Positions 3,452-61,291 of a DNA stretch of 64,000 nucleotides are shown here, in pieces (within the stretch, counting starts at the first letter, position 1; every line of letters starts with the position of its first letter). Where the stretch lies: sequence record OR699282.2. One strand, written 5' to 3'. A model generated the notes under the pieces. That model made no database searches. It was not told where the DNA came from and saw nothing but the letters and a program-made list of their open reading frames with translations. This DNA is from Escherichia phage BAU.Micro_ELP-22. A program made the translations under genes and the position numbers.

Positions 3452-3530
3452 TTGACTTATTTTGTCAGTACTGGCATAATGTATTCATTGGCAGATAAGC
3501 CGTAGCCCATAGGGTGCGGGAGTGTATCTA
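3452..3530 (+). repeat. Repeated intergenic element, type A (promoter-like + conserved GCCCAyAGGGTGC segment)
   Basis: TTGACT 3452-3457, CATAAT 3475-3480, then CATTG..AGATA..TAGCCCATAGGGTGCGGGAGTGTATCT; related copies at 10639, 14687, 17668, 19931. Confidence 0.6.
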
Positions 3531-5797: not shown

Positions 5798-5869
5798 CGG
5801 CACCCGGTGGGTTAGTGACTGTTTCGTCTTGATGTAGTAATTATGCCAGTACTGGATGCACTTGTCAAC
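5798..5869 (-). repeat. Repeated intergenic element, type B
   Basis: Reverse complement: TTGACA-17-CATAAT then ACATCAAGACGAAACAGTCACTAACCCACCGGGTGC. Confidence 0.55.
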
Positions 5870-11206: not shown

Positions 11207-11265
11207 TTGACAATAGATTATAGTACTGTATAATAGTTTACATCAAGGGGAGAATAGTTCTCCCC
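11207..11265 (+). promoter_or_regulatory. PeSL-like promoter cassette
   Basis: TTGACA 11207-11212, TATAAT 11229-11234, hairpin GGGGAGAATAGTTCTCCCC 11247-11265. Confidence 0.7.
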
Positions 11266-11287: not shown

Positions 11288-11500
11288 ATGGCTAATATCC
11301 GGTCGAAATTAAAAAATGCAAAACAAGTTTTATTTTCAGATCATGAATACTTTAATAAAGATATTACAGGAGTTACAAGTATCAAGGAAGTAAAAGAAAA
11401 AACCGGCGTTTTGTGTGATGTGCGATTAGTTGGAACATTTGGGAATAACGTGCTATATCGCTGCGGTGATTACAATTTTACACTGACTATCATTAACTAA
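11288..11500 (+). CDS. hypothetical protein (70 aa)
   Basis: ATG 11288, SD-like GAGAGAGA. Confidence 0.65.
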   Translation: MANIRSKLKNAKQVLFSDHEYFNKDITGVTSIKEVKEKTGVLCDVRLVGTFGNNVLYRCGDYNFTLTIIN

Positions 11501-11512
11501 AAATATTATCAC

Positions 11513-11548
11513 AGTACTATTGACATAGTTTGATAGTACTGACATAAT
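11513..11548 (+). promoter_or_regulatory. Class-II promoter
   Basis: AGTACT 11513-11518, TTGACA 11520-11525, AGTACT 11535-11540, CATAAT 11543-11548. Confidence 0.65.
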
Positions 11549-11582
11549 AACTTTTATCAACTACACTACTAAGGAATTAAAA

Positions 11583-11762
11583 ATGGCTATCATCGCAAAA
11601 ACTGAAATCATCGGCCTGGATTCTATCATCATGACGTTTGAAGATCAAAAAGGTATGTATGTGGTTTCCTATGGTGATTATGTTCGGGAGTATGAAACGG
11701 TAGACGAAGCCTTTGAAAGTTACATTCGCCAGGTGAATAAAGCATACGACGACTACCGCTAA
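11583..11762 (+). CDS. hypothetical protein (59 aa), not in ORF track
   Basis: ATG 11583 with SD AAGGAA; downstream of class-II promoter. Confidence 0.55.
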   Translation: MAIIAKTEIIGLDSIIMTFEDQKGMYVVSYGDYVREYETVDEAFESYIRQVNKAYDDYR

Positions 11763-11773
11763 AATATATTACC

Positions 11774-11817
11774 AGTACTATTAAATCTATTGACAATGTT
11801 TGATAGTACTGTATAAT
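11774..11817 (+). promoter_or_regulatory. Class-II promoter
   Basis: AGTACT upstream, TTGACA 11790-11795, TATAAT 11812-11817. Confidence 0.6.
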
Positions 11818-11861
11818 AAGTTTTATCAACAGTAGTTAACTTAACCTAAGAGAGAAACAAA

Positions 11862-12005
11862 ATGATCGCACTGGATTCATTCATCGACGCAGTACTGGCA
11901 AAAACTGGCGAGGATCTGACCGCAGAACAATACGCAATGATCGAGCAATGCCAGCAAGACGGTAAATCGGTGAAAGATACTGTTAAGATTATCCGCAAGA
12001 TGTAA
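11862..12005 (+). CDS. hypothetical protein (47 aa), not in ORF track
   Basis: ATG 11862 with SD AAGAGAGA; followed by stem-loop 12012-12037. Confidence 0.5.
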   Translation: MIALDSFIDAVLAKTGEDLTAEQYAMIEQCQQDGKSVKDTVKIIRKM

Positions 12006-12011
12006 GATTAT

Positions 12012-12040
12012 AGCCCACTGGTTAACGCTGGTGGGCTTTA
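12012..12040 (+). terminator. Stem-loop, possible terminator (weak U-run)
   Basis: AGCCCAC..GTGGGCT then TTTAATTC. Confidence 0.45.
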
Positions 12041-12110
12041 ATTCATTACCCTATACAATGCCAGTACTAAACCGTTTATCTCGTTAGAATGCGTTACAGG
12101 ACGTTTAACA

Positions 12111-12308
12111 ATGATTAGCATGAAATCAGTACAAAAACAAATAGAAACATTATCAAAAATTAAACGTAAACAGTACTCCTTAGAATATACAATCAATGGT
12201 AACTATCATCTAATGAAAGAAAATAATTTTATAGTCATTGATGAATCATTGCAAATCATTAGTATAGTACTGAAAGCATTAATCAATGACAGAAAAAAAT
12301 TAAAATAA
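12111..12308 (+). CDS. hypothetical protein (65 aa)
   Basis: ATG 12111; weak SD; AT-rich. Confidence 0.4.
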   Translation: MISMKSVQKQIETLSKIKRKQYSLEYTINGNYHLMKENNFIVIDESLQIISIVLKALINDRKKLK

Positions 12309-12312
12309 ACTA

Positions 12313-12388
12313 TTGACAATATCATCCAGTACTGGCATAATACTTACATCAAGACGAGAACGTCACTAACCCATAGGGTGCACAAATG
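12313..12388 (+). repeat. Repeated intergenic element (B-type sequence, plus orientation)
   Basis: TTGACA 12313-12318, CATAAT 12336-12341, then ACATCAAGACGAGAACGTCACTAACCCATAGGGTGCACA. Confidence 0.55.
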
Positions 12389-12403
12389 TAACTGTATAAT
12401 ATT

Positions 12404-12434
12404 GATCAAAAAATGATCTGATCAATACTTGATC
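12404..12434. promoter_or_regulatory. Cluster of four GATC sites (TGATCA repeats)
   Basis: GATC at 12404, 12415, 12420, 12431 within 31 bp, directly downstream of TATAAT 12395-12400. Confidence 0.4.
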
Positions 12435-12639
12435 AATTTGCGTAAAGTAGTATAATTCTATGCAGTTGGTTAGACGAAAGGTTATGATTAGTAGTGCAAG
12501 TGTATAAAAATTTTCATGGTGTATCGTTCCGCACATATGGGGATGAATATGTGGTATCATGTGGATTGGAAAAAGTAAGAACAAGTAATATTATTGTCGC
12601 ATTACAGTACTATAGTATTTTTATAATGAGGTTAAAATA

Positions 12640-12897
12640 ATGGCTGTAGGATTCGCGAAAGATGGGGCCGAACAAGACGAGATTAACGCAGTGATTCAGG
12701 CTGCCGTTAACCACGCTAGAAAGCAAATTAACGCACAAATAGAATCACTGATACATTGCCTCGACTGCGGCGATATAATCCCTGAGAAACGACGCCAGGC
12801 CGTTAAGGGATGTAAGTACTGCATAACTTGCCAGGAGGATCATGATAGTACTTTTAAACGTCCCCCGCGTAATTGTTGGCATAGATCTATGAGATAA
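12640..12897 (+). CDS. TraR/DksA-family C4 zinc-finger protein (85 aa)
   Basis: C-x2-C...C-x2-C (CLDCGDIIPEKRRQAVKGCKYCITC) C-terminal zinc-finger arrangement typical of TraR/DksA; SD GAGG. Confidence 0.7.
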   Translation: MAVGFAKDGAEQDEINAVIQAAVNHARKQINAQIESLIHCLDCGDIIPEKRRQAVKGCKYCITCQEDHDSTFKRPPRNCWHRSMR

Positions 12898-12904
12898 AAA
12901 GTAA

Positions 12905-12932
12905 TTGACAGTACTGAAAGATAGTGTATAAT
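12905..12932 (+). promoter_or_regulatory. sigma70-like promoter
   Basis: TTGACA 12905-12910, 16-bp spacer with CAGTACTG, TATAAT 12927-12932. Confidence 0.65.
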
Positions 12933-12961
12933 GTTTTATATCTTAACTGAGGATAGTAATC

Positions 12962-13318
12962 ATGGGAATACAACATATCACGCGTACTACTGACAATGGC
13001 GAGATCACTGGCTATCAAGTACAGGGCAAAGTAGCACAATTGCAGTACTGGTTTGTTAAACGTGGAATCATTGCACCGGATCTTGATTATGACCGTGTAG
13101 CGTTTATTGATTCTCTTTATGTTGATCCTGATAGTCGGGGCAATGGTGAAGGTAACGAATTAATGAATGCCTTTATCGATGCCGCCGATGATTCAGATTG
13201 TATCATCTTAGAATGCGATACGGGAGAAGATAACGCCTTTAATCTTAAAGAATGGTACGAAGGTTTCGGATTCGAGGTATTGATAGATAGTGAATATCCT
13301 ATCATGATTTTATCATAG
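12962..13318 (+). CDS. GNAT-family N-acetyltransferase (118 aa)
   Basis: IDSLYVDPDSRGNGEGNELMNAFIDAA matches the GNAT acetyl-CoA binding motif (V-x-P-x-x-R-G-x-G); SD GAGGA. Confidence 0.65.
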   Translation: MGIQHITRTTDNGEITGYQVQGKVAQLQYWFVKRGIIAPDLDYDRVAFIDSLYVDPDSRGNGEGNELMNAFIDAADDSDCIILECDTGEDNAFNLKEWYEGFGFEVLIDSEYPIMILS

Positions 13319-13378
13319 TACTTGCATTTAGTTTTCAGTACTGTTATAGTACTTGCATCAAGGGGAAACATCTTCCCC
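13317..13378 (+). promoter_or_regulatory. PeSL-like promoter cassette
   Basis: AGTACT 13317-13322, TTGCAT 13322-13327, TATAGT 13345-13350, hairpin GGGGAA-ACAT-CTTCCCC 13363-13378. Confidence 0.6.
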
Positions 13379-13396
13379 TACTAAGAGGAAATAAAA

Positions 13397-13585
13397 ATGG
13401 AAAACTTATCAAGTATTTTAGTACAAGATGATTTCGGTAATCCTGGAAGTGCTATCATTGTTCGGGGTAATAAAGCAACATTTGTTATTGCTGGTGGACC
13501 TGTACAGCGTAGCATTAAAAACAATGCCGTTACTATTAATAATGTACGCTATCGCTTAGATAAAGAATTGATTCATAAACTGTAA
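13397..13585 (+). CDS. hypothetical protein (62 aa)
   Basis: ATG 13397, SD AAGAGGAA. Confidence 0.65.
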   Translation: MENLSSILVQDDFGNPGSAIIVRGNKATFVIAGGPVQRSIKNNAVTINNVRYRLDKELIHKL

Positions 13586-13942: not shown

Positions 13943-14002
13943 TTGACAATGCAATCCAGTACTGTATAATAAGTTACATGAAGGGGAGAAATGATTCTCC
14001 CC
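13943..14002 (+). promoter_or_regulatory. PeSL-like promoter cassette
   Basis: TTGACA 13943-13948, TATAAT 13965-13970, hairpin GGGGAGAAATGATTCTCCCC 13983-14002. Confidence 0.7.
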
Positions 14003-15249: not shown

Positions 15250-15310
15250 TATTGACAAAGTATCTTAGTACTGTATAATAGTTTACATCGAGAGGGGGAA
15301 TGGTTCCCCT
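15250..15310 (+). promoter_or_regulatory. PeSL-like promoter cassette (identical 44-bp promoter, copy 1 of 3)
   Basis: TTGACA 15252-15257, TATAAT 15274-15279, hairpin GGGGGAATGGTTCCCC; same promoter at 15519 and 18096. Confidence 0.7.
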
Positions 15311-15518: not shown

Positions 15519-15582
15519 TATTGACAAAGTATCTTAGTACTGTATAATAGTTTACATCAAGTGAGGGGAAACGGTTCCCCTC
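15519..15582 (+). promoter_or_regulatory. PeSL-like promoter cassette (copy 2 of 3)
   Basis: TTGACA 15521-15526, TATAAT 15543-15548, hairpin GAGGGGAAACGGTTCCCCTC 15564-15582. Confidence 0.7.
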
Positions 15583-18095: not shown

Positions 18096-18156
18096 TATTG
18101 ACAAAGTATCTTAGTACTGTATAATAGTTTACATCAAGGGGAGAATAGTTCTCCCC
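18096..18156 (+). promoter_or_regulatory. PeSL-like promoter cassette (copy 3 of identical promoter)
   Basis: TTGACA 18098-18103, TATAAT 18120-18125, hairpin GGGGAGAATAGTTCTCCCC 18138-18156. Confidence 0.7.
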
Positions 18157-19625: not shown

Positions 19626-19686
19626 TTGACAGTACTAACCAGTAATGTATAATGTTTTACATAGAGCGGGGGAATAGTTCTCCCGC
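19626..19686 (+). promoter_or_regulatory. PeSL-like promoter cassette
   Basis: TTGACA 19626-19631, TATAAT 19648-19653, hairpin GCGGGGGAATAGTTCTCCCGC 19666-19686. Confidence 0.7.
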
Positions 19687-55977: not shown

Positions 55978-56019
55978 TAAAAACGCACATGGAGTGCATT
56001 AGAAGATCAAGGATAGATC

Positions 56020-60769: not shown

Positions 60770-61291
60770 ATGTCGAAGAAGGATGCTTCGAAAAAACATT
60801 CAGTACATTTTAGTACTGGTAAAGATAACTGGACAACTCCAAAAGATTTCTTTGAAGAGTTAGATGAGTTATGGGGATTTACGCTTGATGCTGCTTGTGT
60901 TGATGAGACTGCATTATGTGAGAATTATTTTACACCAAATGATGATTCTCTTTCACAGGATTGGGGAAAGAATATAGTTTGGTTGAACCCTCCATATAGT
61001 GATTTGAAAACATGGTTATCTAAAGCAGTAGATGCGTATAATAAAGGAGCAACTGTATTAATTCTTGTACCATCAAGAACGGATACTATAGCCTTTCAGG
61101 ATTATGCTGCGAAAGTTTGTGATTGTATTTGTTTTATTAAGGGAAGGTTACGATTTGGTATCCCAGAAGAACCAGAGAAGAAAACAGATTCAGCACCATT
61201 TCCTTCGTGTCTGATAGTACTGGATAAGTACTTAACCACTGCTAAAATCAATTATCTTAAATCTCTTGGATTGGTGATGAAGAATTTATGA
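60770..61291 (+). CDS. dam: DNA N6-adenine methyltransferase, phage Dam type (173 aa)
   Basis: FTLDAAC...VWLNPPYS: target-binding/catalytic NPPY motif and overall layout typical of small phage Dam methylases; SD AAGGAA. Confidence 0.8.
   Translation: MSKKDASKKHSVHFSTGKDNWTTPKDFFEELDELWGFTLDAACVDETALCENYFTPNDDSLSQDWGKNIVWLNPPYSDLKTWLSKAVDAYNKGATVLILVPSRTDTIAFQDYAAKVCDCICFIKGRLRFGIPEEPEKKTDSAPFPSCLIVLDKYLTTAKINYLKSLGLVMKNL

Follow-up and report, generated by a model that had tools for sequence, protein, structure and literature searches.

Paired GATC-cored half-sites at an early promoter of an Asteriusvirus jumbo phage: a conserved element that is most likely a repressor operator

Dam-dependent switches with GATC sites in the operator of a repressor are found where OxyR controls agn43 and the mom gene of phage Mu; pap is another methylation-sensitive promoter of this class. 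At the Fur/sci1 T6SS switch the repressor and Dam compete at a GATC inside the operator (PMC3145626). In systems of the Fur/sci1 and OxyR types several GATCs lie in a binding region that overlaps or abuts a sigma-70 promoter, the repressor blocks methylation, and methylation lowers its affinity. Small-gene cassettes autoregulated through paired palindromes are also known, for example those of phage repressors of the Arc/Mnt type. The YefM and Axe operators are paired TGTACA palindromes 12 bp apart from centre to centre, whose register relative to the -35 and -10 hexamers differs among homologous cassettes (PMC7730913). In yefM-yoeB and axe-txe this spacing of the 6-bp palindromic cores, about one helical turn, is strictly kept, and the operator is inherited together with its gene. 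SeqA and Dam are not known to need more than GATC, such as a flanking sequence. At oriC, SeqA binds tandem hemimethylated GATCs that share a helix face at a distance of one turn, several such sites being grouped closely (PMC2691817). The pac site of phage P1 contains clusters of TGATCA/G hexamers, and their Dam methylation governs cleavage.

The GATC cluster described here lies in a 64-kb stretch of phage DNA, called the window throughout, and shares traits with each of these systems. Like the Fur/sci1 and OxyR regions it has several GATCs in a putative binding region on a sigma-70 promoter, a layout that would permit the same competition between repressor and methylase. Whereas GATCs are incidental in the Fur and OxyR boxes, all half-sites in the window are built around GATC; the setting is the early region of a lytic jumbo phage rather than a phase-variable bacterial locus, and the regulator is a candidate. 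The cluster resembles yefM-yoeB and axe-txe in the spacing of its palindromic cores, in a register relative to -35 and -10 that varies between relatives, and in the co-inheritance of operator and gene. It differs from them in having no toxin partner, in using a Dam site as its core, and in the predicted fold of the product of the small gene that it precedes, gp293, which is AP2-like and not RHH or Phd/YefM. The arrangement of GATCs is that seen by SeqA at oriC, but the element has conserved flanks and an exact 11-bp period, and is tied to the promoter of one gene instead of an origin. Like P1 pac, the cluster groups TGATC hexamers (four of the form TGATC(A/T) within about 30 bp) in a phage that has its own Dam-type enzyme; in contrast to P1 pac, it is single, does not lie at a genome end, is missing from sibling phages and overlaps a promoter.

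Across positions 11500-13500 the window is 98-99% identical to the Asteriusvirus Escherichia jumbo phages E9.1, CRJP21, UB and PBECO4, and 90-94% identical to the 121Q clade; judged by its sequence, it belongs to a 121Q/PBECO4-like jumbo coliphage of the genus Asteriusvirus. In phage vB_Ec-M-J the homologous position falls within an annotated 21.5-kb direct terminal repeat that is dense with small genes, all on one strand, which places the GATC cluster in the early-gene region of a lytic phage of about 350 kb. A terminal repeat of about 20.7 kb has been reported for Sharanji (PMC11895373). A GATC cis-regulatory module is previously undescribed in the papers on Asteriusvirus, Sharanji and CBB, which leave GATC unmentioned and present methyltransferases only as anti-restriction genes.

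The cluster is part of a 332-bp cassette bounded by two copies of the 9-bp direct repeat TTAAAATAA. The features referred to below are the following.

12300..12308, left copy of TTAAAATAA, which also forms the end of an upstream 65-aa ORF (12111-12308); sequence verified
12313..12341, plus strand, distal promoter P1 from a promoter scan: TTGACA, 17-bp spacer, CATAAT, 11/12 consensus positions, TG before the -10
12342..12394, plus strand, leader, containing CCCATAGGGTGC (12370-12381)
12395..12400, plus strand, TATAAT cited in the first-pass annotation, probably not a functional -10
12403..12420, putative operator O1: half-sites TGATCAA (12403-12409) and TGATCTG (12414-12420), GATC cores 11 bp apart
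12419..12436, putative operator O2: half-sites TGATCAA (12419-12425) and TGATCAA (12430-12436), 11 bp apart, overlapping the -35 of P3
12429..12456, plus strand, proximal promoter P3: -35 TTGATC (12429-12434), 16-bp spacer, -10 TATAAT (12451-12456), 10/12 in the promoter scan
12494..12640, plus strand, small gene of 48 aa, 121Q gp293 family (phrog_38664), candidate DNA-binding autoregulator
12632..12640, right copy of TTAAAATAA, taking in the stop codon of gp293 and the opening base of the start codon of the DksA-like gene
12640..12897, plus strand, DksA/TraR-type C4 zinc-finger gene (Pfam PF01258, E=1.6e-10; NF008243, E=4.8e-23, below its cut-off)
60770..61291, plus strand, phage N6-adenine methyltransferase of the 'Dam' family (PF05869, E=6e-32)

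In ph0011, a phAPEC6-like phage, everything between the two repeats is absent and the upstream 65-aa gene adjoins the DksA-like gene. The absence of the whole segment from phAPEC6-like members identifies the element as an accessory cassette and not an essential site. The first-pass annotation had placed the cluster in a non-coding stretch of 240 bp; the true stretch is 185 bp long (12309-12493) once the conserved 48-aa ORF at 12494-12640 is counted.

The four GATC sites start at 12404, 12415, 12420 and 12431 and span 31 bp (12404-12434). Three of them occur as TGATCA (12403, 12419, 12430), and these three half-sites are BclI sites, blocked by Dam methylation. Together the four sites make up an imperfect palindrome of 37 nt (12401-12437), and can also be read as two 16-nt direct repeats, TGATCAAAAAATGATC and TGATCAATACTTGATC, that are 81% identical. 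The next densest span of four GATCs in the window covers 168 bp, making this cluster the densest; the chance of such a cluster is P ~0.004 over the whole window, assuming uniform placement of the observed number of sites, and P ~0.016 against the GATC-richer first 24 kb only. GATC is under-represented in the window as a whole (142 observed against 206 +/- 14 expected from dinucleotide shuffles). This depletion is confined to the part outside the first 24 kb (51 observed, about 116 expected), the first 24 kb having 91 GATCs against 82 expected. The complete genome of the relative TH47 (352,450 bp), used for a genome-wide count, has 581 GATCs against about 1130 expected, a depletion of about 2-fold. 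Its homologous site packs five GATCs into 70 bp, and no other four- or five-site cluster of that genome is as dense (next five-site span, 212 bp; P ~0.0025). The first-pass annotation had allowed that GATC density here might not differ from the background; in both the window and TH47 the cluster exceeds it. No other TGATCAA-type pair was found in the 64-kb window.

Two promoters precede gp293. P1 matches three of the four compared 121Q-clade genomes at 28/29 positions, and vB_Ec-M-J at 22/29. It is a member of a repeated promoter-plus-leader family, with about 10 related leader copies within the first 20 kb. The leader behind it is 52/53 identical between the two Asteriusvirus clades, against only 46-62% for the sequence further downstream, and its 3' half is kept in Erwinia phage Hallingskeid and in metagenomic relatives. 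An E-value scan of positions 1-24000, the leader included, matched no Rfam family, and a pattern scan of IMG/VR for the leader returned phage 121Q alone. The proximal promoter P3 has the attributes of a sigma-70 promoter, with near-consensus hexamers and a 16-bp spacer within the 16-18 bp range. The fourth GATC (12431-12434) lies inside its -35, and the remaining GATCs are found 8-25 bp before that hexamer. A promoter is found at the equivalent position in every lineage, in the form TTGAC(T/A/C)-17-AATAAT.

The cluster had initially been described as lying just downstream of a promoter TATAAT. The hexamer exists at 12395-12400, but it lacks a -35 at a distance of 16-18 bp and is missing from the calls of the promoter scan. 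In the Erwinia-phage lineage it has not been kept, the Hallingskeid-like sequences having AAATAT or TTTTAT in its place. Nor is it an extended -10, since the TG directly adjoins the hexamer, in the wrong register. The relevant promoter is most likely P3. With this change of promoter the annotation is supported in part: the conserved element overlaps P3, whose -35 contains the fourth GATC, and the cluster does sit at a promoter.

Comparison across lineages resolves the cluster into paired half-sites. A pair of GATCs at offsets 0 and 11 is present in 14/14 loci from three deeply diverged lineages. In these O1-type pairs the half-sites are invariant and the 4-nt spacer between them varies (GAAA, TAAA, TAAG, TTAT, AAAA). 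Counted over 59 sites (32 unique), GATC is conserved at 100%, T at -1 at 83-90%, A at +4 at 88-90%, A at +5 at 86-88%, and T at -2 at about 65%. As aligned, the conserved unit is TGATCAA (roughly TTGATCAA), larger than GATC. A unit of this kind, recurring at a constant distance of 11 bp, is what a sequence-specific binding protein would be expected to leave, more than Dam or SeqA on their own.

The surrounding DNA has diverged unevenly. Between the PBECO4-type clade, to which the window belongs, and the 121Q-type clade, the intergenic region is about 80% identical and the flanking genes 90-94%. Apart from the leader, inter-clade identity is 21-22/24 for TATAAT plus the first GATC pair (O1), 13/19 for the second pair, 12-13/19 for the P3 spacer plus -10, 17/37 for the next 37 nt and 57-58/93 for the 5' part of the ORF. 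The GATC offsets are 0, 11, 16 and 27 in the window, 0, 11, 27, 56 and 67 in the 121Q clade, and 0, 11, 43 and 54 in Hallingskeid-like phages. Sites 1, 2 and 4 are kept in the 121Q clade; site 3 (12420) is absent there, being specific to the clade of the window, and a new pair, TGATCAATTCTTGATCA, follows directly after the P3 -10. The absence of the one and the gain of the other indicate that site number is maintained (four versus five) while single sites turn over. One pair is always found on P3, in a register that differs: on the -35 in the window, between -4 and +14 in the 121Q clade, and to both sides of the -10 of the P3 equivalent (TTGATC-AATAAT-TGATC) in Hallingskeid-like phages and L040.

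The association extends beyond the genus. Every close gp293 homolog has such pairs upstream; the diverged lineages concerned number at least five, one of them represented by the Erwinia jumbo phage Hallingskeid. In this phage the 3' half of the leader is followed by TTGATCAAGAAATGATCA, a TTGACT-17-AATAAT promoter and a gene of 60 aa whose product is a homolog of that of the 48-aa ORF of the window; the two match phrog_38664 with E=6e-7 and E=7e-36, respectively. A tblastn search of the phage collection with this Hallingskeid-type homolog returned Hallingskeid itself only, and a profile search of metagenomes revealed six further homologs. All 11/11 contigs carrying these homologs share the Hallingskeid layout, with invariant half-sites in the first pair, a spacer of GAAA, TAAA, TAAG or TTAT and a fixed 11-bp period. 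The TGATCAA-N4-TGATC(AA) pairs thus persist in Hallingskeid and the eleven contigs, although the proteins are only 29-36% identical to that of the window. Among other-lineage neighbours the only clear Pfam match is an HNH endonuclease upstream of the cassette in Hallingskeid; a 196-aa neighbour has a weak, below-cut-off match to protein kinases.

An exhaustive HMM search added more distant gp293 homologs, all of 47-74 aa. The nearer of these show variants of the motif: one (L037) has kept the left half-sites TTGATCAA and has right half-sites without GATC (TGTTC). Another (L038) has one pair directly after a -10-like GACAAT, and the L040 locus combines the pair straddling AATAAT with a single site adjoining the -35. 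Upstream of L042-L044, the three most remote of the homologs examined, there are neither such pairs nor an obvious alternative repeat. TH47 has a pair of the same type at a second, intergenic locus, where it closely precedes a TAAATA that resembles a late promoter and compares with the described ATAAATA late motif (PMC5259590). This pair is conserved with a different spacer in UB and phAPEC6 and is lost in JNE01.

The architecture of the coding part suggests that two genes depend on P3. The DksA-like ATG overlaps the gp293 stop codon (TAATG), so that this gene is probably co-expressed with gp293. The SIP2 target SPE2, bound by a protein of the AP2/ERF class, consists of two 6-bp repeats 4 bp apart. 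The tandem AP2 domains of this Plasmodium protein have been solved with DNA (PDB 6sy0), and the predicted fold of gp293, a confident model of four strands plus a helix, resembles AP2. Unlike the AP2/ERF proteins, gp293 is a stand-alone phage protein of 48 aa, a candidate DNA binder with no Pfam AP2 sequence match. Its sequence hits no Pfam family at E up to 10, AP2 (PF00847) included, and Foldseek finds nothing significant for its model in the PDB; the AP2 likeness is for this reason a lead and not a membership. Since operator and gene travel together, gp293 is the first candidate for the protein that binds the half-sites, an assignment drawn in part from the model that we nevertheless regard as doubtful. 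Phages of the phAPEC6 type have no gp293 cassette yet keep the pair at the second locus, which speaks for a possible binder other than gp293, supplied by the host or encoded elsewhere in the phage. The GTG or TTG start codon of gp293, its long Shine-Dalgarno spacing and the lack of pairs at L042-L044 also count against our preferred explanation. The possibility that the product of the upstream 65-aa ORF (gp292) is a paralog of gp293, which would explain the second locus of phAPEC6, was rejected (hhalign probability 0.1%).

We favour the hypothesis that the module is most likely a repressor operator of Dam-site-cored repeats controlling the AP2-like protein and the DksA/TraR-like gene, and give this explanation as a whole a probability of about 0.5. 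The four GATCs would be the cores of four TGATCAA-type half-sites making up the adjacent operators O1 and O2, in which the 11-bp distance places paired half-sites on one face of the helix. A protein bound there could occlude the sigma-70 promoter P3 and could also act as a roadblock for transcripts arriving from P1. Either effect would repress the gp293 gene (12494-12640) and the translationally coupled DksA/TraR-like gene (12640-12897). Both protein binding at the half-sites and its repressive effect are inferred. The likeliest binder would be gp293 itself, acting by autorepression, a proposal founded on the union of operator and gene in one cassette and on the predicted AP2-like sheet-plus-helix fold. 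The operator reading draws on the fixed half-sites with a free spacer, the one-turn period, and the two sites per locus of which one is always on the proximal promoter. It is also favoured by the excess of GATC, by the retention of the pairs amid diverged sequence and next to one gene family, and by the recurrence of the pair at the second locus, with the YefM/Axe operators and the Fur/sci1 switch as precedents. That a protein operator controls P3 appears probable from these features, and more so than the complete scheme.

The contribution of methylation is a separate matter. The Dam-type methyltransferase attributed to the window in the first-pass annotation is confirmed at the family level by the PF05869 match (E=6e-32); the ORF scores 92.8 bits against TIGR01712, just under the cut-off of 97.05, and is 32-36% identical to methyltransferases of Stx phages and T1-like phages. 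A Dam homolog is a core gene of the whole group of Rak2-like jumbo phages; phAPEC6, ph0011, Sharanji and RaK2 all have it and are without the cassette. Co-occurrence of cassette and Dam gene was considered as evidence and found uninformative, and the link that had been drawn between the cluster and the phage enzyme carries no weight. The phage Dam-family enzyme is a possible source of GATC methylation that would not be specific to the cluster. The E. coli host also supplies Dam. Because every half-site is a Dam target, the host is Dam+ and the phage has a Dam-family enzyme, half-site binding and adenine methylation would be expected to influence each other, and this coupling could make expression depend on whether the phage DNA has been methylated or replicated. 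Sensitivity to methylation is in that sense a reasonable expectation from the Dam target at the core of every half-site; modulation of the operator or promoter by methylation is a serious possibility that, on the sequence, falls short of even odds. In a Dam+ host the adenines of the half-sites would become methylated wherever nothing protects them. The N6-methyl groups would project into the major groove, where a sheet-type reader may be expected to sit. A bolder version, a methylation timer, would have the 48-aa AP2-fold mini-repressor of the gp293 family read TGATCAA in one methylation state only, so that the injected genome, fully Dam-methylated, and newly made hemi- or unmethylated copies would be distinguished and the DksA/TraR-like secondary-channel factor of RNA polymerase would be switched on or off as replication starts, with phage Dam resetting the mark. 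We consider this scenario improbable.

The main competitor of a dedicated repressor is a pure Dam/SeqA switch, in which pairs left hemimethylated by replication bind SeqA with high affinity, or methylation of the -35 alters P3, and early genes are shut off in time with replication. The Escherichia and Erwinia hosts are enterobacteria with Dam and SeqA, and the phages carry a Dam-family gene. GATC is the sole fully invariant part of the half-site, T at -1 changing to C or G between clades; the fourth site lies inside a -35 hexamer, and the cluster is conspicuous against a genome poor in GATC elsewhere. The persistence of the second-locus pair in phAPEC6, devoid of gp293, also fits this switch. 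The 11-bp spacing on one helix face is the geometry preferred by SeqA, and the locus has the required GATCs, at least two on the same face within about three turns (PMC2691817). The independence from flanks that characterises SeqA binding is not observed here, T(-1), A(+4) and A(+5) being 83-90% conserved. These flanks and the exact 11-bp period are left unexplained by SeqA, which tolerates a range of spacings. The right half-sites of L037 have lost GATC (TGTTC) while the left TTGATCAA is retained, and the element co-travels with one gene family instead of being spread over many early promoters. These features make a switch built on Dam and SeqA alone unlikely, although less so than the remaining alternatives. 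An RNA element must be weighed, since the self-complementary TGATCA would allow every pair to fold as a hairpin in the P1 transcript. This limits the operator reading, as half-site conservation around a variable spacer is in itself compatible with a function in RNA as well as in DNA. The hairpins would form an attenuator, a processing site or an mRNA stability element at +55 to +90 from the near-consensus, conserved P1, behind a leader conserved at 52/53. The window folds as a hairpin UAUUGAUCA...UGAUCAAUA (z = -2.0, 12348-12500), and the very sequence of a TTGATCA-N5-TGATCAA pair gives a 7-bp stem around a variable loop. The z-score is marginal, the long hairpin requires the 12420 site that is absent from the 121Q clade, and there are no compensatory changes, pairing being broken by T to C at -1 in the 121Q clade and by TGATCTG in the window. 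There is also no terminator-like T-run and no Rfam family, and in most lineages the second pair lies on the -10 or -35 of P3, a position meaningful at the DNA level. We rate the RNA element as very unlikely.

P1 pac is built of clustered TGATCA/G hexamers with methylation-controlled cleavage, and GATC clusters are found in oriC and P1 oriR. Location within a terminal repeat of about 21 kb, downstream of a strong promoter like T4-type origins, could accordingly suggest another DNA transaction at this site: a replication origin, a packaging site like P1 pac or an injection-stop signal. The absence of the entire 332-bp cassette from phAPEC6-like members of the same genus excludes an essential origin or pac site. 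The site moreover lies about 12 kb inside the 21.5-kb repeat and not at a terminus, positions 12200-12700 contain no DnaA box (with at most 1 mismatch) and no IHF consensus, and there is one group of hexamers, not two around a cleavage site. Across lineages the element follows the small gene and its promoter. An origin or pac site was rejected on the dispensability of the cassette, the mid-repeat position and the lack of DnaA and IHF sites, and such DNA transactions taken together appear highly improbable. There remains chance expansion of an AT-rich repeat, without function, for which the 81%-identical 16-nt direct repeat formed by the two pairs (TGATCAAAAAATGATC and TGATCAATACTTGATC, as a tandem duplication), the clade-specific 12420 site and a P of only ~0.016 against the early-region background could be invoked. 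Retention of the pairs in at least five lineages, amid heavily diverged non-coding DNA and protein, their consistent overlap with a promoter and the top rank of the cluster in the complete TH47 genome speak against it, and the absence of function is strongly disfavoured. The comparisons establish the cluster as a genuine conserved regulatory element at a promoter, as far as sequence can do so, and a repressor operator remains the reading that we prefer for it.

If this reading is true, the module would illustrate in compact form how genes are controlled in the early region of Rak2-like jumbo phages, a region that is almost uncharacterised. Its roughly 330 bp combine two promoters and two putative operators with a candidate regulator of 48 aa, and the gene that follows encodes a DksA/TraR-type factor that probably acts on host RNA polymerase. 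It would also provide a function for the orphan protein family phrog_38664. The presence of Dam/BclI sites at the half-sites bears on whether adenine methylation serves as regulatory information in a lytic phage or for anti-restriction only. If methylation is irrelevant, the finding reduces to an ordinary autoregulated operator; if the methylation timer were true, the gp293 family would represent a new family of readers of m6A at GATC and the module would be the first epigenetic switch coupled to replication to be described for a jumbo phage with a lytic life cycle.

The type of TGATCA pair seen at 12403-12436 recurs at a second, intergenic position of the 352-kb relative TH47 (ATTGATCAAAAATTGATCC; locus L008, 26405-26435); this second pair was aligned across TH47, UB (L023), where it reads ATTGATCATATTTTGATCT, and phAPEC6 (L024), occupying alignment columns 130-160. 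In JNE01 the cores at this locus are altered to GTAC and GTCA. A conserved late-promoter-like TAAATA and an ORF of 174 aa with no assigned function are found just downstream of the pair. Judged by the record coordinates of the UB and E9.1 homologs, the second pair is expected outside the window, at about 81-82 kb counted from the window start.

The sole further GATC pair at 11-bp spacing within the window is at 56005-56019 (AGATCAAGGATAGATCATGG). This pair, which TH47 carries in identical form, has A and not T at the -1 base and extends across a probable ribosome-binding site and start codon; it is probably coding or ribosome-binding-site sequence rather than an operator. The Hallingskeid-like lineage has a fifth GATC (TATTAT-A-GATC-CC), devoid of TGATCAA flanks, where transcription from P1, the distal promoter of the cassette that carries the candidate operator, is predicted to start; related leaders elsewhere read TATATC or TATACG at this place. 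The site is located as follows:

465-475 of L017 (Erwinia phage Hallingskeid), fifth GATC
Equivalent position in L026, L028, L029, L031-L034 and L036 (further loci of this lineage), fifth GATC

The terminal-repeat early region shows no depletion of GATC (window 1-24000, 91 observed versus 82 expected), and the bulk genome shows an approximately 2-fold depletion (window 24001-64000, 51 versus 116). The early region of TH47 (85-106 kb) has 52 and 29 GATC per 10-kb bin versus about 14 in the remaining bins. G+C is also higher in the early region, at 37-41% versus 30-34%. In window 1-64000, GCGC has 0 copies versus about 55 expected, GGATCC and CGATCG have no copy, and CTAG and AGCT occur at 0.39x and 0.53x. 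The missing and scarce words together look like strong restriction-site avoidance.

The 48-aa ORF of the cassette has an uneven conservation between the two Asteriusvirus clades: its initial 93 nt share just ~62% identity and its final 54 nt (12587-12640) are identical at 52 of 54 positions. Two explanations are possible: a recombination boundary, and a signal that overlaps the ORF and serves the DksA-like gene translationally coupled to it.

About ten promoter-plus-leader elements with the common motif CCCAnnGGGTGC(A/G)nnnnTGTA are present in the window:

1102, minus strand
1318, minus strand
3506, plus strand
3574, minus strand
5811, minus strand
10694, plus strand
12370, plus strand
14727, plus strand
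17723, plus strand
19981, plus strand

The four minus-strand elements are opposite in sense to every annotated gene. Those at 3506(+) and 3574(-) form a convergent pair whose predicted transcripts would overlap. The one starting near 5868(-) has a clear intrinsic terminator at its end, suggesting a putative sRNA of ~100 nt. Copies are found also in RaK2, GAP32, Salmonella phage 7t3 and others, and no Rfam family matching these elements was found.

Upstream of early genes, near-perfect sigma-70 promoters are followed by ACATCAAG, a GC-rich stem-loop (e.g., GGGGAGAATAGTTCTCCCC) and then a ribosome-binding site, an arrangement resembling the promoter-early-stem-loop cassettes of T4-type phages. 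These promoter and stem-loop cassettes are:

11207-11260
13943-14000
15252-15310
15521-15580
18098-18150
19626-19680

The hexamer AGTACT is in enormous excess, with 137 copies versus 6.9 expected (20x) in the first 21.5 kb of the window and 118 versus 14 (8x) in the rest, while GTAC totals 582 versus 200 over the whole window. AGTACTG adjoins the -10 on its upstream side in many stereotyped early promoters (TTGACA-N9-AGTACTG-TATAAT); other AGTACT copies are paired between tandem promoters, the same place as the TGATCA pairs at 12403-12436. Examples of the hexamer are:

12329-12334, AGTACT
366, 6218, 11207, 13943 and 15252, AGTACT in promoter spacers

AGTACT may be a second operator or modification motif, acting genome-wide.
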